A stretch of 64,000 nt of DNA from an uncultured Acidobacteriota bacterium (GTDB lineage Bacteria > Acidobacteriota > JAQAZP01), in the NCBI GenBank assembly GCA_963836075.1, contig CAWIIB010000009.1, positions 3,330,442 to 3,394,441 on the forward strand. Direction: 5' to 3'. The notes under the pieces were generated by a model. The model did no database searches. It saw only the letters and a list, made by a program, of their open reading frames with translations, and was not told the origin of the DNA. The position numbers were made by a program, and so were the translations under genes. Of this stretch, positions 29,291 through 39,175 are shown one piece after another. Positions within the stretch are counted from its first letter, which is position 1; every line of letters begins with the position of its first letter.

Positions 29291-29932
29291 ATGATCTGCG
29301 CAGATTCCATGCATTTGCTCCTGGAGACAGCAGGCTCGGGAAGCCTGTCGGTTCCACGGCCAGGTGCTTCCACAAGAGGCCCGGAGGATCCCGCCAGACC
29401 CCTGTGGCTCGAAATCCCTCCTGGCGTGAGCTATCTGACTATGGAGAAGGACGGATACCCCCGTTTGGACCAGGATCCACCGGAAGGAGCCAGCGGCTTC
29501 GTGCTGCTCGAACCGATCAGCTGGGACCAGGGCGACCGAGTGCTTGCAATCAATATGCGGCCAAAATCGCTGCGCGTCAACGGGAAAATTGCACCCCCCG
29601 TGATTTTACTGAAAGCGGGTGACGAGCTGCTCTTCAGCCCGGCCAGCGGATATGTGGCGCACGTGGCGGTGTTCAACAGCGGGGCCGTTGGCACTCTGTC
29701 GGATGAGGAGACGGAAGTGAGGTGCGCGATCTGTTTGAACACGTTCGAGATGGGGGCCCGGGTCTATGTGTGCCCTGGTTGTAAAAAGCCATTTCACCTC
29801 GATTCAGAAGATCAGCCGGAGGAGACCCGGCTGGTCTGTGCCCGTCCGGGCAACAGGTGTCCCATCTGCCGGACGCCGATGAATTTTGAGGCTGGCTACA
29901 CCGAGGTCCCGGAGTGCTTCCGGGGGCACTGA
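29291..29932 (+). CDS. zinc-finger protein with RING-like/treble-clef Cys cluster; candidate E3-like component
   Basis: RBS GGGAGGTGA; C-terminal C-x2-C-x12-C-x2-C-x4-H-x13-C-x6-C-x2-C (RCAICLNTFEMGARVYVCPGCKKPFH...CARPGNRCPICR); possible FHA-like segment ...SLRVNGKIAPPVILLKAGDELLF... Confidence 0.45.
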   Translation: MICADSMHLLLETAGSGSLSVPRPGASTRGPEDPARPLWLEIPPGVSYLTMEKDGYPRLDQDPPEGASGFVLLEPISWDQGDRVLAINMRPKSLRVNGKIAPPVILLKAGDELLFSPASGYVAHVAVFNSGAVGTLSDEETEVRCAICLNTFEMGARVYVCPGCKKPFHLDSEDQPEETRLVCARPGNRCPICRTPMNFEAGYTEVPECFRGH

Positions 29933-29943
29933 TCAGCTGAAGC

Positions 29944-31191
29944 ATGGGGGAGAGGACAGTGGCGGATCTCTACTTCGAGATTGAGCATGGCGGGAATCAT
30001 GATTCCACAATTCGCGCGCCCCGGGAGTCCCGCCTGCCGGATTTCATTGGTGCGCCGGATGGCGCCGGGAAGAAGCTCGGTGGGCTGCGGGTGGTCATTG
30101 CCGGATGTGGCAGCGTGGGGCAGGCCGTTGCCATTCACTGCGCCCGGTTGCAGGTGCGTGAAATCAGTCTGGTGGACAGCAAGCCGCTGAAGTCCTCGAG
30201 CATGCTGACCCACGGCTGGGCTTTCCCCGAGGACCTCGGGCAGCCCAAAGCAACGGTTATCGGACGCCTGGTGAAGCAGATCTCCCCGGGCACCCGGGTC
30301 CGGGTGTATGACGGCCGGGTCGGTGAACTGGGTCTCCGTGCATTCGCATCCGCCGACCTGGCCGTGCTCTGCACCGACAACCTGCTGGCCGAAGTGGAGG
30401 TGGGCCGCTGTTGCCGGTTGCTGGGTGTCCCGGTTTTTCAGGGTTCTCTACATGGGGCCAGCATGACTGTGCAGGTTCGGGCCTGGAGCAATACGGCGGA
30501 CGGGCCGTGCCCGGCCTGCAGCTATACCTCGGCCGAATTCGAAGCGCTGAACAGCGAGACCGAATTCAGCTGCGAGGGGGGATTCGGGGGCCGGGGAGCG
30601 CCGCGGATCAGCGGTCCGGTGACGGCCAGCACCTCCTTTCTCTGTGCGCTCAGTGCGGATATGACCATGGTGCAGCTGGTTCGCCACTGGTTGGGACTGG
30701 GCCTGCCGGTTCTCGATTCGATCCTGGAATGGAACGGCTTCACCCACCGCAGTACCGTCAACCCGCTGCAGCGGAAAGCCGGCTGCGGGGGAGAGCACAC
30801 GGTGTGCCGCCGTGTGCCGTCAAACCACGCCATCGGTGAATCATCAATCCGTCAACTGCTCATCGCCGGCGGGGCTGCAACAAAAAAGAACCACGCCGGC
30901 ATGTCCCTTCAGCTGGACGACCTTCTGTTCTGTGAGCGGGCATCGTGCGGTTGTCCGCCGTCACAGCAGTCCGGGAGGTTTTACAGCTGCGGTGCGGGAG
31001 GGGGCCGGGCTGGCGAGGTCTGCAGCACCTGCGGGCAGAAGCCCGTGCCGAGCCCTTTTCATTGTTACGAGATGGTTCCCCTGGCTGAGCTGAAGGCGTG
31101 CATGGATCAGCCGCTTTCAGAGCTGGGGGCGGGAAACGCCGGCTGGGCCAGGCTCCGTGATCCGGAAGGGAGTGTGTTGATCGGTATCTGA
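29944..31191 (+). CDS. E1-like protein (ThiF/MoeB/UBA superfamily), divergent
   Basis: Rossmann-type loop ...LRVVIAGCGSVGQAVA...LVDSK...; several CxxC pairs (GPCPAC, CSTCG). Confidence 0.55.
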   Translation: MGERTVADLYFEIEHGGNHDSTIRAPRESRLPDFIGAPDGAGKKLGGLRVVIAGCGSVGQAVAIHCARLQVREISLVDSKPLKSSSMLTHGWAFPEDLGQPKATVIGRLVKQISPGTRVRVYDGRVGELGLRAFASADLAVLCTDNLLAEVEVGRCCRLLGVPVFQGSLHGASMTVQVRAWSNTADGPCPACSYTSAEFEALNSETEFSCEGGFGGRGAPRISGPVTASTSFLCALSADMTMVQLVRHWLGLGLPVLDSILEWNGFTHRSTVNPLQRKAGCGGEHTVCRRVPSNHAIGESSIRQLLIAGGAATKKNHAGMSLQLDDLLFCERASCGCPPSQQSGRFYSCGAGGGRAGEVCSTCGQKPVPSPFHCYEMVPLAELKACMDQPLSELGAGNAGWARLRDPEGSVLIGI

Positions 31192-37453: not shown

Positions 37454-38348
37454 GGACAGACTGCTCACGCCGATCTACCTGCGGACGAGCGAGGAGATGC
37501 ACTGGCCGGAGGACACGGTGTTTTACATGCTCACCGGCAGCGGTCTCTTTCTCTGCCGCAACAACGAGCACTTCCGCAGCTGTGTTCCGGCCCGCGGCTG
37601 GCCCGGGGAACTGCCCGGTCAGGAAAAGTTCCTCGATCTGCACTATCCCCGGCTGCCCCGGCGGCTGCTGGAACGGGCGGTGGGCTTTTTCGAAGCGGTG
37701 GGGCGCAAACACGATGCGGAAGCGGCACTGCTCCTGGCCTGGGACAGCGAGCGCGAGGTTTACCGCCTGGTGATTCCCCGGCAGCGTTGTACCGTGTACC
37801 TCAACTGGCAGGGGGACACCTCGCCCCAGGGCGTGCACTACGACCTTCCGGAACGCGTGCCCGAGACCTGGATCATTGTTGGCGACATCCACAGCCACGT
37901 CGATTTTTCGGCATACTCCTCGGCCACCGACCAGCACGACGAGCACTACCGCACTGGTCTGCACATCGTGGTGGGCCGCATCTACGACGAGCCGCCCCAG
38001 TTTCATGTGGAAGCCACGGTGGACGGTATGCGCTTTCCCGTCCAGCCGGAGGATATTTTCGAGGGCTACGATTCCCGGAGAAGCGATTTCCCCGAGCAGT
38101 GGTTCGACTGGCTGAAGATCGAACTCGGTTCCGCTTTCACATACTCGGACAGCAGCAAATGGAGTTCCGGCACTGGTTCCTCCGGCTGCAGCGGCCATGG
38201 CCACACGGCCTGTTCACCGATGCCGGCCCCCCGGGGCGGTACCACCGGTTATTCGGTCGCTCCGCTGGAAACGTATCGCAGTTCGGGAAACGGCGGGAAA
38301 AAGAAGGGCGGTGGCCGCAACCGTGACGGCCGGGGGAAACGTCGATGA
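37440..38348 (+). CDS. JAB/MPN (JAMM) metallopeptidase; candidate deubiquitinase/Ubl-processing peptidase
   Basis: Exact JAMM motif H-x-H-x7-S-x2-D in ...IVGDIHSHVDFSAYSSATDQHDE... with upstream Glu; Gly/Ser/Lys-rich C-terminal tail. Confidence 0.75.
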   Translation: MNCSEDRLLTPIYLRTSEEMHWPEDTVFYMLTGSGLFLCRNNEHFRSCVPARGWPGELPGQEKFLDLHYPRLPRRLLERAVGFFEAVGRKHDAEAALLLAWDSEREVYRLVIPRQRCTVYLNWQGDTSPQGVHYDLPERVPETWIIVGDIHSHVDFSAYSSATDQHDEHYRTGLHIVVGRIYDEPPQFHVEATVDGMRFPVQPEDIFEGYDSRRSDFPEQWFDWLKIELGSAFTYSDSSKWSSGTGSSGCSGHGHTACSPMPAPRGGTTGYSVAPLETYRSSGNGGKKKGGGRNRDGRGKRR

Positions 38349-39175
38349 GCGGGGTCGGGAGGGAACAGGTGGTTCTGATGCCCGCTCTGGCCGACCACAC
38401 GGCGGTCAAAATCATCGGTCTGGGCGGAGTGGGCGGCATCGTGGCCCGCTACCTGTCCATCTTCCTCGCCTCGCTGGACCGCGACCTGCGGCTGGTGCTC
38501 ATCGACGGCGACGAGTTCGAGCCGTCCAATGCCACACGGATGCTGTTCTCCGATCACGGCAACAAGGCCGCGGTCACTCGCGCCGAACTCCGGGAACGCT
38601 TTGCCGACACGTCCCTCATGCTGACTGCCGTGGAGCAGTATGTGAAGCCGGACAACATTCACCGCCTGATTCAGAATGATGACGTGGTCATCCTGGCCGT
38701 GGACAACCACGCCACGCGAAAGCTGGTCAGCGAGCACTGCCGGAGCCAGTTGAACGACGTGTGCCTGATCTCGGGGGGGAATGACGGCGTGGGCCCCGAC
38801 GGGTCGGGTTCCCGGCGGCGGGGCACATACGGCAACTGCCAGATTTATTTGCGCCGGGGCGGCCGGGATCTATGTCCCCCGATCACCCGGTATCATCCCG
38901 AGATCCGGGAACCGGCGGATCACAGCCCCGCCGAGGAGAACTGCACCGAACTGATCAAGTCGGTGCCGCAGATCCTGTTCGCTAACCTGGCCGCGGCATC
39001 GGCCATCCTCAACGCCTTCTGGCTCCATTGCTGCTCCGCGCTGCACTACAGCGAACTCAGCTTCGACATTGCCGATGGTCTGATGCGGCCCATGCCCCTG
39101 CCGGCCCCTCTCGTCATCGCGAGGAGCCCGAAGGGTGAAGCGGCGCTCTCTTCGGATGTCTTTCCGGTTCAATGA
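38345..39175 (+). CDS. E1-like ThiF/MoeB-family adenylyltransferase
   Basis: ATGA overlap with JAB gene; nucleotide-binding ...VKIIGLGGVGGIVARYL... and ...LIDGDEFEPSNATRMLF... motifs. Confidence 0.75.
   Translation: MSGVGREQVVLMPALADHTAVKIIGLGGVGGIVARYLSIFLASLDRDLRLVLIDGDEFEPSNATRMLFSDHGNKAAVTRAELRERFADTSLMLTAVEQYVKPDNIHRLIQNDDVVILAVDNHATRKLVSEHCRSQLNDVCLISGGNDGVGPDGSGSRRRGTYGNCQIYLRRGGRDLCPPITRYHPEIREPADHSPAEENCTELIKSVPQILFANLAAASAILNAFWLHCCSALHYSELSFDIADGLMRPMPLPAPLVIARSPKGEAALSSDVFPVQ

Follow-up and report, generated by a model that had tools for sequence, protein, structure and literature searches.

An eleven-gene bacterial operon joining ubiquitin-like conjugation enzymes and two modifier candidates to an Mpa-like AAA+ ATPase

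To our knowledge, the prokaryotic ubiquitin-like systems described so far are small, comprising four or five genes. The subject of this study is a longer operon, whose eleven genes occupy positions 29291-39175 (+ strand) of a 64,000-nucleotide stretch of DNA from an uncultured Acidobacteriota bacterium (contig CAWIIB010000009.1; the whole stretch is referred to as the window). In this operon, genes for the activation, transfer and removal of ubiquitin-like proteins (Ubls) lie together with a gene for an AAA+ ATPase.

Several described systems share parts with this locus. The operon of the Caldiarchaeum subterraneum type encodes ubiquitin, an E1, an E2, a RING protein and an Rpn11 (PMC3082918, Nunoura 2011; PMC5654768, Hennell James 2017; PMC6043591, Fuchs 2018), and bacterial relatives of it are credited to Burroughs 2011 in PMC4197634. 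The type 6d operon of Iyer 2006 combines a Ubl, a JAB peptidase, an E1-like protein, an E2-like protein and an alpha-helical protein (PMC1779556), while Bil (BilABCD), Bub (BubABCD) and type II CBASS (Cap2/Cap3) represent a further group of bacterial operons (PMC10557695, PMC11601596, PMC11601603). The Pup-proteasome, the 19S particle of the eukaryotic 26S proteasome (Rpt1-6 and Rpn11) and the archaeal SAMP/UbaA/JAMM system with PAN or Cdc48 complete the comparison.

Architecture and distribution of the operon

All eleven co-directional open reading frames (ORFs) listed by the first-pass annotation of the window were present, separated by spacers of -23 to +90 nt, and the motifs it had quoted were found in the expected products: FHPNIACEAGGQVLCLG in g3, GISGSGKS and VLVILEEVD in g7, HSHVDFSAYSSATD in g10, and GLGGVGG together with DGDEFEPSNATR in g11. 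The first five genes form what is here called arm A, namely a RING-type E3 candidate (g1), a ThiF/MoeB-type adenylyltransferase (g2, E1a), a UBC-fold E2 (g3), a Trp-rich protein (g4) and a small modifier candidate (g5, UblA). They are followed by a probable JAMM metallopeptidase (g6), an Mpa/ARC-like ATPase (g7) and arm B, which consists of a precursor modifier (g8, UblB), a conserved protein (g9), a further JAMM metallopeptidase (g10) and a short ThiF-type adenylyltransferase (g11, E1b). The gene starts on record make the spacing tighter still than in the ORF list: g7 starts at 34367, which gives a 586-aa product and leaves 4 nt after the end of g6, and the likely start of g6 lies at about 33187 (record protein P0177, 391 aa). 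The true start of g8 is probably the ATG at 36171, because family conservation begins there. There is overlap or direct abutment at g6/g7, g8/g9, g9/g10 and g10/g11. Transmembrane segments are absent from all eleven products, and the window holds no tRNA or Rfam elements.

The gene order is conserved far beyond the window, to an extent well above what chance would give. A homology search with g3 returned relatives solely from uncultured Planctomycetota and similar bacteria, and three of the contigs carrying them showed the identical eleven-gene layout in differing neighbourhoods. A scan of one genome per species added 23 loci, from metagenome-assembled genomes (MAGs) of Planctomycetota, Verrucomicrobiota, Deltaproteobacteria/Thermodesulfobacteriota, Gemmatimonadota, Eiseniibacteriota and Chromatiales. 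Three loci reached through g9 homologues (L029-L031) and a very divergent one (L033) likewise have the full order. The comparison comprises L001-L028, L029-L031 and L033, besides L032 with a short form discussed below; related loci have so far been seen only in MAGs. A tblastn search with the window proteins recovered the eleven genes in one order at every locus long enough (about 30), in at least six phyla, which bears out the operon status proposed at first pass. Cassette proteins share 27-72% identity between loci, with unrelated genes on the flanks. The cassette thus behaves as one unit across these genomes, and its patchy spread over distant phyla with differing flanks indicates horizontal transfer.

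On balance, we lean towards reading the locus as a self-contained, horizontally spread operon in which reversible tagging by two Ubls would be joined to an ATP-driven unfoldase. The functional coupling of tagging to unfolding is something we infer from the conserved gene order.

Judged by the sequences of the cassette, its arm A resembles the Caldiarchaeum-type operon, its arm B the type 6d operon and its ATPase that of the Pup-proteasome. With the Caldiarchaeum-type operon the cassette shares a Ubl encoded in the operon, an E1 of the ThiF type, a small RING E3 and a JAMM protein, and g3, as a UBC-fold E2 with a catalytic Cys beside E1 and RING, is a hallmark of that type. However, eleven conserved genes stand here against five, the additions being a second E1, Ubl and JAMM, the Mpa-like ATPase, g4 and g9. 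Moreover, neither a C-terminal Gly-Gly nor a recognisable ubiquitin family is found (UblA ends in HLG and UblB in GEKG), no Pfam model matches the E2, and the JAMM matches are to Prok-JAB and PRTRC_A rather than to the eukaryotic JAB model or Rpn11.

Arm B has the layout of the type 6d operon, which we take to be the PRTRC cassette of NCBIfam/TIGRFAM: a Ubl, a Cys protein, a JAB protein with N-terminal extension and a short E1. Nevertheless, g10 scores 46.0 bits against the 101.8-bit cut-off of PRTRC_A (E 4.2e-12), and g11, although aligned over the full length of PRTRC_ThiF (9-241/245, E 5.7e-7), reaches 29.1 of the 144.75 bits needed. No ParB and no PRTRC_B, C, D, E or F match was obtained with NCBIfam among the cassette proteins and distant g9 relatives; PRTRC is usually plasmid or integrative and conjugative element borne, while g9 is absent from 72,556 plasmids. 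In the present cassette the 6d-like set is also accompanied by an AAA+ ATPase and by a complete E1/E2/RING arm. These partial resemblances, of g10 and g11 to PRTRC_A and PRTRC_ThiF and of g1-g3 to RING/E1/E2 sets, could be taken to mean that two unrelated systems, one Caldiarchaeum-like and one 6d/PRTRC-like, lie side by side with an unrelated ATPase between them, and the existence of a short form without arm A would suit such an arrangement. We nonetheless consider it very improbable, as the order of the eleven genes persists across phyla, at 27-72% identity and in changing surroundings, and the spacers between them are tiny or negative.

The remaining systems differ more in their components. 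Across its OB and AAA domains, g7 has its greatest similarity to Mpa/ARC, and the logic of a tag combined with a ring unfoldase is that of the Pup-proteasome; yet g7 scores 87.4 bits against a 504.75-bit cut-off for pup_AAA and has no docking tail, and no Pup, PafA, Dop or 20S was found among the Pfam/NCBIfam matches of the cassette proteins or their neighbours. Here, furthermore, the tags would be E1-activated beta-grasp Ubls, whereas in the Pup-proteasome the tag is disordered Pup, ligated by a glutamine-synthetase-like enzyme. The 19S particle and the archaeal systems share Ubl tagging through E1, E2 and RING, an OB-domain AAA+ ring and, if the motif-level call on g6 is accepted, a JAMM gene abutting the ATPase gene (g6/g7), but the cassette contains no 20S core or lid scaffold and g7 falls in the bacterial Mpa/ARC branch, not with PAN/Rpt. 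Bil, Bub and type II CBASS are likewise bacterial operons that encode a Ubl with its E1 and E2 and a peptidase of the JAMM or another kind, with precursor Ubls matured by the peptidase and a sporadic distribution, but they have four genes, with one E1 and one Ubl and with neither a RING nor an AAA+ ATPase. Among the ten cassette proteins scanned with PADLOC (g1-g7 and g9-g11), BilD matched g11 alone and weakly (E 1.8e-5) and BilA, BilB and BilC matched nothing, while the E1-E2 models of type II CBASS matched only the E1 halves of g2 and g11, E1 and E2 being separate genes here and a CD-NTase being absent. Bub was compared through its E2 only (BubB scores 6.8 against the g3 model).

A full-text search of the accessible literature likewise found no operon in which genes for E1, E2, RING and Ubl accompany an AAA+ ATPase together with a further E1 and a further Ubl, although partial listing in the Burroughs 2011 and 2012 surveys is possible. 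The view taken at first pass, that known systems do not combine these parts, agrees with the family thresholds and with the literature covered by this search, and the cassette fell short on thresholds or defining features tested for each of Bil, type II CBASS, PRTRC, the Pup-proteasome and the Caldiarchaeum-type operon, Bub having been compared by its E2 only.

The two modifier arms

The product of g1 (29291-29932) had been described as a RING-like zinc-finger protein, which is supported by a match to Prok-RING_1 (E 1.4e-5), by alignment of residues 144-194 to the full length of zf-RING_2 (2-44/44) and by the C4HC3 ligands C144, C147, C160, C163, H168, C182, C189 and C192, mostly conserved in 24 loci with occasional substitutions. 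The C-terminal pattern, C-x2-C ... C-x2-C-x4-H ... C ... C-x2-C, follows the arrangement of prokaryotic RINGs, which are C4HC3 with a long last insert (PMC11354881). The N-terminal part of about 130 residues is also conserved, with no fold assigned. Downstream of it, g2 (29944-31191) is an E1-like protein, as first proposed (ThiF, E 5.4e-24), with E. coli ThiF (1.5e-10) and MoeB as best solved relatives. Invariant or near-invariant positions are C189xxC192, C210 (FSCxG), C281..H285, C335xC337 and C360xxC363; the CxxC...C..H zinc site is thus kept, Cys210 lies in the position of the crossover loop, and the C-terminal domain is Cys-rich.

The assignment of g3 (31268-31945) as a UBC-type E2 was borne out by structure prediction. 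No match was found in Pfam, NCBIfam, PADLOC profiles or PDB sequences, but the family alignment gave a confident AlphaFold model (pLDDT 91) with a UBC fold, three extra N-terminal helices and an invariant Cys147 accompanied by an HPN-like motif. The model is structurally closest to eukaryotic E2s, whereas the bacterial E2s score lower (Cap2 7.8, CdnG-E2 7.5, BubB 6.8, BilB 5.6). When the g3 family was aligned by hhalign to three eukaryotic E2s entered by hand, HPN and Cys were placed correctly, at a probability of 5%.

Arm A is completed by g4 and g5. The 271-aa product of g4 (31950-32765) evolves fast (mean column identity 31%; W45, G68, W70, W112, R199 and P221 invariant), and its position is conserved in all loci. 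It matched nothing in Pfam, NCBIfam or PADLOC and showed no hhalign relation to other cassette families. UblA, encoded by g5 (32779-33081), has about 80 conserved residues and ends in ...TP[KR][TS]HLG; H98 and L99 are invariant, G100 is kept in at least 90%, and the ORF stops right at the Gly in most of 24-26 loci. UblA would accordingly behave as a modifier that needs no processing. Its beta-grasp fold is a prediction; hhalign placed its predicted helix on helix 1 of ubiquitin, but not significantly.

The second modifier, UblB (g8, 36105-36509), is confirmed as a beta-grasp Ubl, so that of the two small Ubls first proposed one stands on its fold, while UblA stands on its conserved HLG-stop with the fold predicted. 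Neither g5 nor g8 matched a ubiquitin-family Pfam model at E<=1, the sole trace being a ThiS-like match of E 0.31 in a UblB homologue. UblB shows a conserved ...AGEKG followed by a tail varying in length and sequence. In L001, L011 and L013, as in numerous database proteins, it continues in frame into g9; among the 150 best cluster representatives of g9, about 30 have an N-terminus 95-145 residues longer, enough for a UblB fusion. A GEKG motif followed by a tail or a fusion partner points to maturation of UblB by a peptidase, and the conserved Gly boundary, the neighbouring JAMM gene and the dedicated E1 all suggest a modifier that is matured by cleavage.

The partner in these fusions, g9 (36503-37453), codes for a 316-aa protein with 756 and 791 relatives in two protein universes (about 800 clusters), none of them on the 72,556 plasmids or in IMG/VR viral contigs, and no curated family model matched it. 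Among polar candidate residues only Asn163 and Cys179 persist across members of 30% identity, and both sit between a five-strand meander and a long helix. This placement, together with a position between Ubl and JAB/E1 as in type 6d, makes an E2-like role plausible, and g9 is regarded as a candidate acceptor or transferase for UblB.

The metallopeptidase g10 (37440-38348) carries an N-terminal alpha+beta extension and was rightly called a JAMM peptidase, its Prok-JAB match (E 5.9e-8) reaching 33 bits and exceeding the 25-bit cut-off, with PRTRC_A as next best match; E94, H151, S152, H153, S161 and D164 are invariant. For g11 (38345-39175), put forward as a second canonical E1, the E1-like part of the claim stood (ThiF, E 6e-16; GxGGxG, D120/N121, C132 and C200 invariant), but "canonical" did not, as the protein is short, ThiF/PRTRC-like and devoid of the CxxC zinc site. 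Its homology to E1a extends over the Rossmann core only (hhalign 90.6%). This was the one relation detected by hhalign among the cassette families, with none between UblA and UblB, g6 and g10, g9 and E2, or g4 and any other. More generally, Pfam, NCBIfam, PADLOC and PDB sequences yielded nothing useful for g3, g4, g5, g6 and g9, nor did Pfam, NCBIfam and PDB sequences for g8.

Instead of protein conjugation, the cassette might serve to carry sulfur, to make a cofactor or to modify peptides, along the lines of ThiS/MoaD-ThiF/MoeB/MccB. We hold this to be most improbable: the cassette comes without ThiG, ThiH, MoaE, a rhodanese or a biosynthetic enzyme, and sulfur transfer has no use for an E2 with catalytic Cys, a RING, one established and one probable JAMM, or an unfoldase.

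The motor and its proposed coupling to the arms

The PAN/ARC-like AAA+ ATPase announced at first pass was recovered as g7 (34340-36127), which aligns along its length to the Mpa/ARC model TIGR03689 pup_AAA (E 8.4e-25, residues 62-559 on 16-487/512) and also matches AAA (E 4.8e-14) and Prot_ATP_ID_OB_C (E 6e-4). Its best solved relative is Mpa (5kwa, 1.7e-16), the OB domain included, followed by ARC and then Cdc48. It is of the single-ring type, with an N-terminal helical region and an OB domain, and a GxxGxGK Walker A, a Walker B, a WFG pore loop and RR are conserved.

Directly upstream, g6 (33172-34362) is probably a second JAMM/MPN+ metallopeptidase, with a Cys-rich insert. In its C-terminal half E222, H293, H295, S324 and D327 are invariant and C232, C234, C307, C310 and C316 conserved, and in an hhalign alignment to Rpn11, CSN5 and AMSH-LP (104 columns with a 13-residue insert) the E, HxH and SxxD fall on the JAMM zinc site in order; g10, as positive control in the same test, gave E 0.0043. 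Because the g6 gene abuts g7, an Rpn11-like partnership of the two products is suggested. Of the three proteins said at first pass to carry no recognisable motif, only g4 has thus stayed blank, g6 being a probable JAMM and g9 belonging to an extensive conserved family in which fusions with UblB are frequent. Antisense to g7-g9 runs an ORF of 1090 codons (34196-37468, - strand). Long antisense ORFs of this kind recur in related loci, and we read them as shadow ORFs of the GC-rich coding strand, not as genes.

Variant loci inform on how the motor is connected to the arms. In the short form of L032 (1345-7933, on a low-GC contig), the AAA+ gene is followed by four tiny ORFs and by UblB, whose tail extends 55 aa beyond GEKGG; two g9 paralogues in tandem come next, and then a 160-aa gene, JAB, an 86-aa gene and E1b. 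On this contig, which ends 1.3 kb upstream of the ATPase, g1-g6 were not detected next to the ATPase gene. By keeping AAA, UblB, g9, JAB and E1b together, the short form ties the unfoldase to arm B, with which it appears to travel, and arm A may be a later addition. In five loci an additional gene, coding for about 380-520 aa, separates AAA+ from UblB (L010, 7241-8461; L014, 7365-8915; L016, 14650-16146; L022, 14814-16079; L033, 8537-9661); its product, which matches nothing in Pfam, combines a degenerate P-loop (LWGPSGxG...) with a C-terminus resembling an AAA lid and may be a pseudo-ATPase adaptor. In L028 (12910-14997), AAA+ and UblB share one 696-codon frame with no stop, which represents either a true fusion, with the Ubl tethered to the motor, or a frameshift error in this single MAG. 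Apparent g6-AAA and g9-JAB fusions in L016 were ruled out, as direct translation revealed one stop codon in each. L023, finally, has a 5.4-kb insertion between E2 and g4 (10637-15682), coding for an opposite-strand TPR protein and for a pair of 540-550-aa proteins that have no Pfam match.

The same variants can be arranged differently, with AAA-UblB-g9-JAB-E1b as the core, UblB as a cleavable or adaptor domain docking g9 or the ATPase, and arm A, here including g6 (RING-E1a-E2-g4-UblA-g6), as a regulatory module acquired later, by which the core or its substrate would be ubiquitylated. The short form, the frequent UblB-g9 fusions and the in-frame AAA-UblB fusion would all suit this arrangement. 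However, the GEKG boundary, the adjacent JAMM and the dedicated E1 are hallmarks of an activated modifier with an exposed C-terminus, arm A could lie elsewhere in the L032 genome beyond the contig end, and the L028 fusion could be the error mentioned above. We therefore regard this arrangement as unlikely.

Returning to the favoured reading, in which two tagging arms serve an unfoldase, we start from what the sequences show, namely the domain identities, the gene order, the C-termini of the Ubls and the UblB-g9 fusions, and infer the rest: the pairing of each E1 with its Ubl, the tasks of g4, g6 and g9, the targets, the order of the steps and the biological purpose. In arm A, UblA would be made with its C-terminal Gly ready, be adenylated by E1a and pass to a Cys of that enzyme, probably C210, and then to Cys147 of the UBC-fold E2, from which the g1 RING would ligate it to lysines of a target picked by the g1 N-terminal domain; g4 would act as an obligatory partner in this arm. 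In arm B, UblB would be made as a precursor or as a UblB-g9 fusion and be cut by the g10 JAMM after ...GEKG, whereupon E1b would adenylate the freed Gly and the Asn...Cys pair of g9 would receive or transfer UblB in an E2-like position. A g7 hexamer would engage the Ubl-marked proteins and thread them through its WFG pore, while g6 would strip the Ubl during threading in the manner of Rpn11. Because no peptidase chamber is encoded, the outcome would be unfolding, extraction or hand-over to a host protease. Tentatively, the cassette may be pictured as a transferable "tag-and-unfold" machine that follows ubiquitin-19S logic without a 20S, with a pore-side JAMM (g6) on an Mpa-like unfoldase and with g9 replacing the E2 in the second arm.

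Several observations weigh against this reading. The short form indicates that arm A is dispensable for the core, and the two arms may act on different substrates. In g7 the Walker B motif is EE, not DE, and the C-termini (...ELVRAS, ...LERAS and similar) contain no HbYX/GQYL-type motif and no penultimate Tyr. The cassette encodes no protease and no peptidase chamber is encoded nearby, which together with the missing HbYX tail leaves degradation unsupported. The JAMM call on g6 derives from motifs and from the above alignment, at E 0.032, to references entered by hand, with no Pfam or PDB profile match. The g1 match to Prok-RING_1 falls below its cut-off (25.4 against 29.1 bits), the HPN of g3 is not universal (His in 19/26 and Asn in 18/26 members), and neither hhalign nor a PDB profile search gave a significant fold for UblA.

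Regulation, surroundings and possible purpose

The AT-rich upstream region and divergent helix-turn-helix (HTH) gene that had been said to bound the operon are both present. The latter, g0 (27343-28611, - strand), codes for a 422-aa candidate regulator with an N-terminal Cro/C1-type HTH (residues 23-57; HTH_26, E 0.0015; HTH_3, E 0.035). The divergent intergenic region (28612-29290), a 680-bp spacer 5' of g1, has a GC content of 0.53-0.54 against about 0.65 for the window. Taken together, g0 and the spacer (27001-30000) show 53-56% GC against about 65% elsewhere in the window, the cassette body included, and the regulator end and the enzymes may have different histories. Five sigma-70-like sites occur in the region where 1.9 are expected, four of them within the g0-g1 spacer, and a GGAGG ribosome-binding site precedes the ATG of g1; a sigma-54 consensus promoter was looked for upstream of g1, and none was found. 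An imperfect palindrome at 28894-28940 (TCCATAATAA...TTATTATGGA core, 22-nt arms, 77% complementary, AT-rich spacer) is a candidate operator for the g0 HTH protein.

Clustering of flanking ORFs identified an upstream regulator-like gene as the sole consistent neighbour of the cassette. Homologues of g0 adjoin it in L001, L004, L007, L008, L016 and L017 (8 loci by clustering), a SorC-like gene with a sugar-binding domain lies upstream in 6 loci, and sigma-54 activators are found in L002 and L033. In the window, the upstream stretch 18679-25943 (- strand) encodes an NtrC-type sigma-54 response regulator (22951-24315), a histidine kinase (24312-25943) and a 908-aa FG-GAP protein. At the unrelated locus L002 (1928-7449) an FG-GAP protein and a sigma-54 activator also precede the cassette, as does a sigma-54 activator in L033 (5-2170). 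The site TGGTACGGTTCTTGC (27231-27245, - strand), with one mismatch to the sigma-54 -24/-12 consensus, lies just upstream of small secreted CarboxypepD_reg/Gly-rich genes (26580-27050 and 25972-26487). On the other side, about 6 kb downstream of the cassette and on the opposite strand, a Tricorn-type protease (44959-48448, -) gives PD40/DPPIV_N beta-propeller, Tricorn_C1, PDZ_Tricorn and Peptidase_S41 matches over two overlapping ORFs. Thermoplasma Tricorn acts downstream of the proteasome; the linkage to the cassette is probably coincidental.

The patchy spread across phyla, combined with dedicated and interchangeable regulators, fits an accessory or conflict system, and a Bil-type defence against phages or mobile elements would be compatible with the same biochemistry. 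In Bil, BilA is conjugated to phage tail proteins; here, invader proteins would receive the Ubls, and assemblies tagged in this way would be taken apart by the AAA+ motor. Beyond the distribution, the differing flanks and the variable regulators, this possibility draws on one locus that lies beside RVT/RNase H, ParB and DUF5131 genes, on weak PADLOC matches to E1-E2, BilD and TRIP13 models, and on the known bacterial E1/E2/JAB/Ubl operons being defence systems (PMC10557695, PMC11601603). On the other hand, the PADLOC scan returned no BilA, BilB, BilC or other defence-protein match, the neighbours in the window, L001-L005 and L029-L031 are housekeeping or envelope genes rather than defence islands, and g9 relatives are missing from the plasmid and viral collections searched above. 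A defence role thus appears possible but somewhat doubtful, and the cassette may instead serve regulated protein quality control.

Should the defence role prove true, the cassette would add an unfoldase-based effector arm to Bil-like immunity. Whatever its purpose, it offers an E2 whose structure comes closer to eukaryotic E2s than do the bacterial E2s with solved structures, a pair of Ubls with differing modes of maturation, and two conserved families without annotation, g4 and g9, the latter with about 800 clusters. As a compact operon it is within reach of gene synthesis and heterologous expression, by which tagging, tag removal and ATP-dependent unfolding could be studied together. The linkage of E1/E2/RING tagging to an unfolding motor is a defining trait of the eukaryotic ubiquitin-proteasome pathway.

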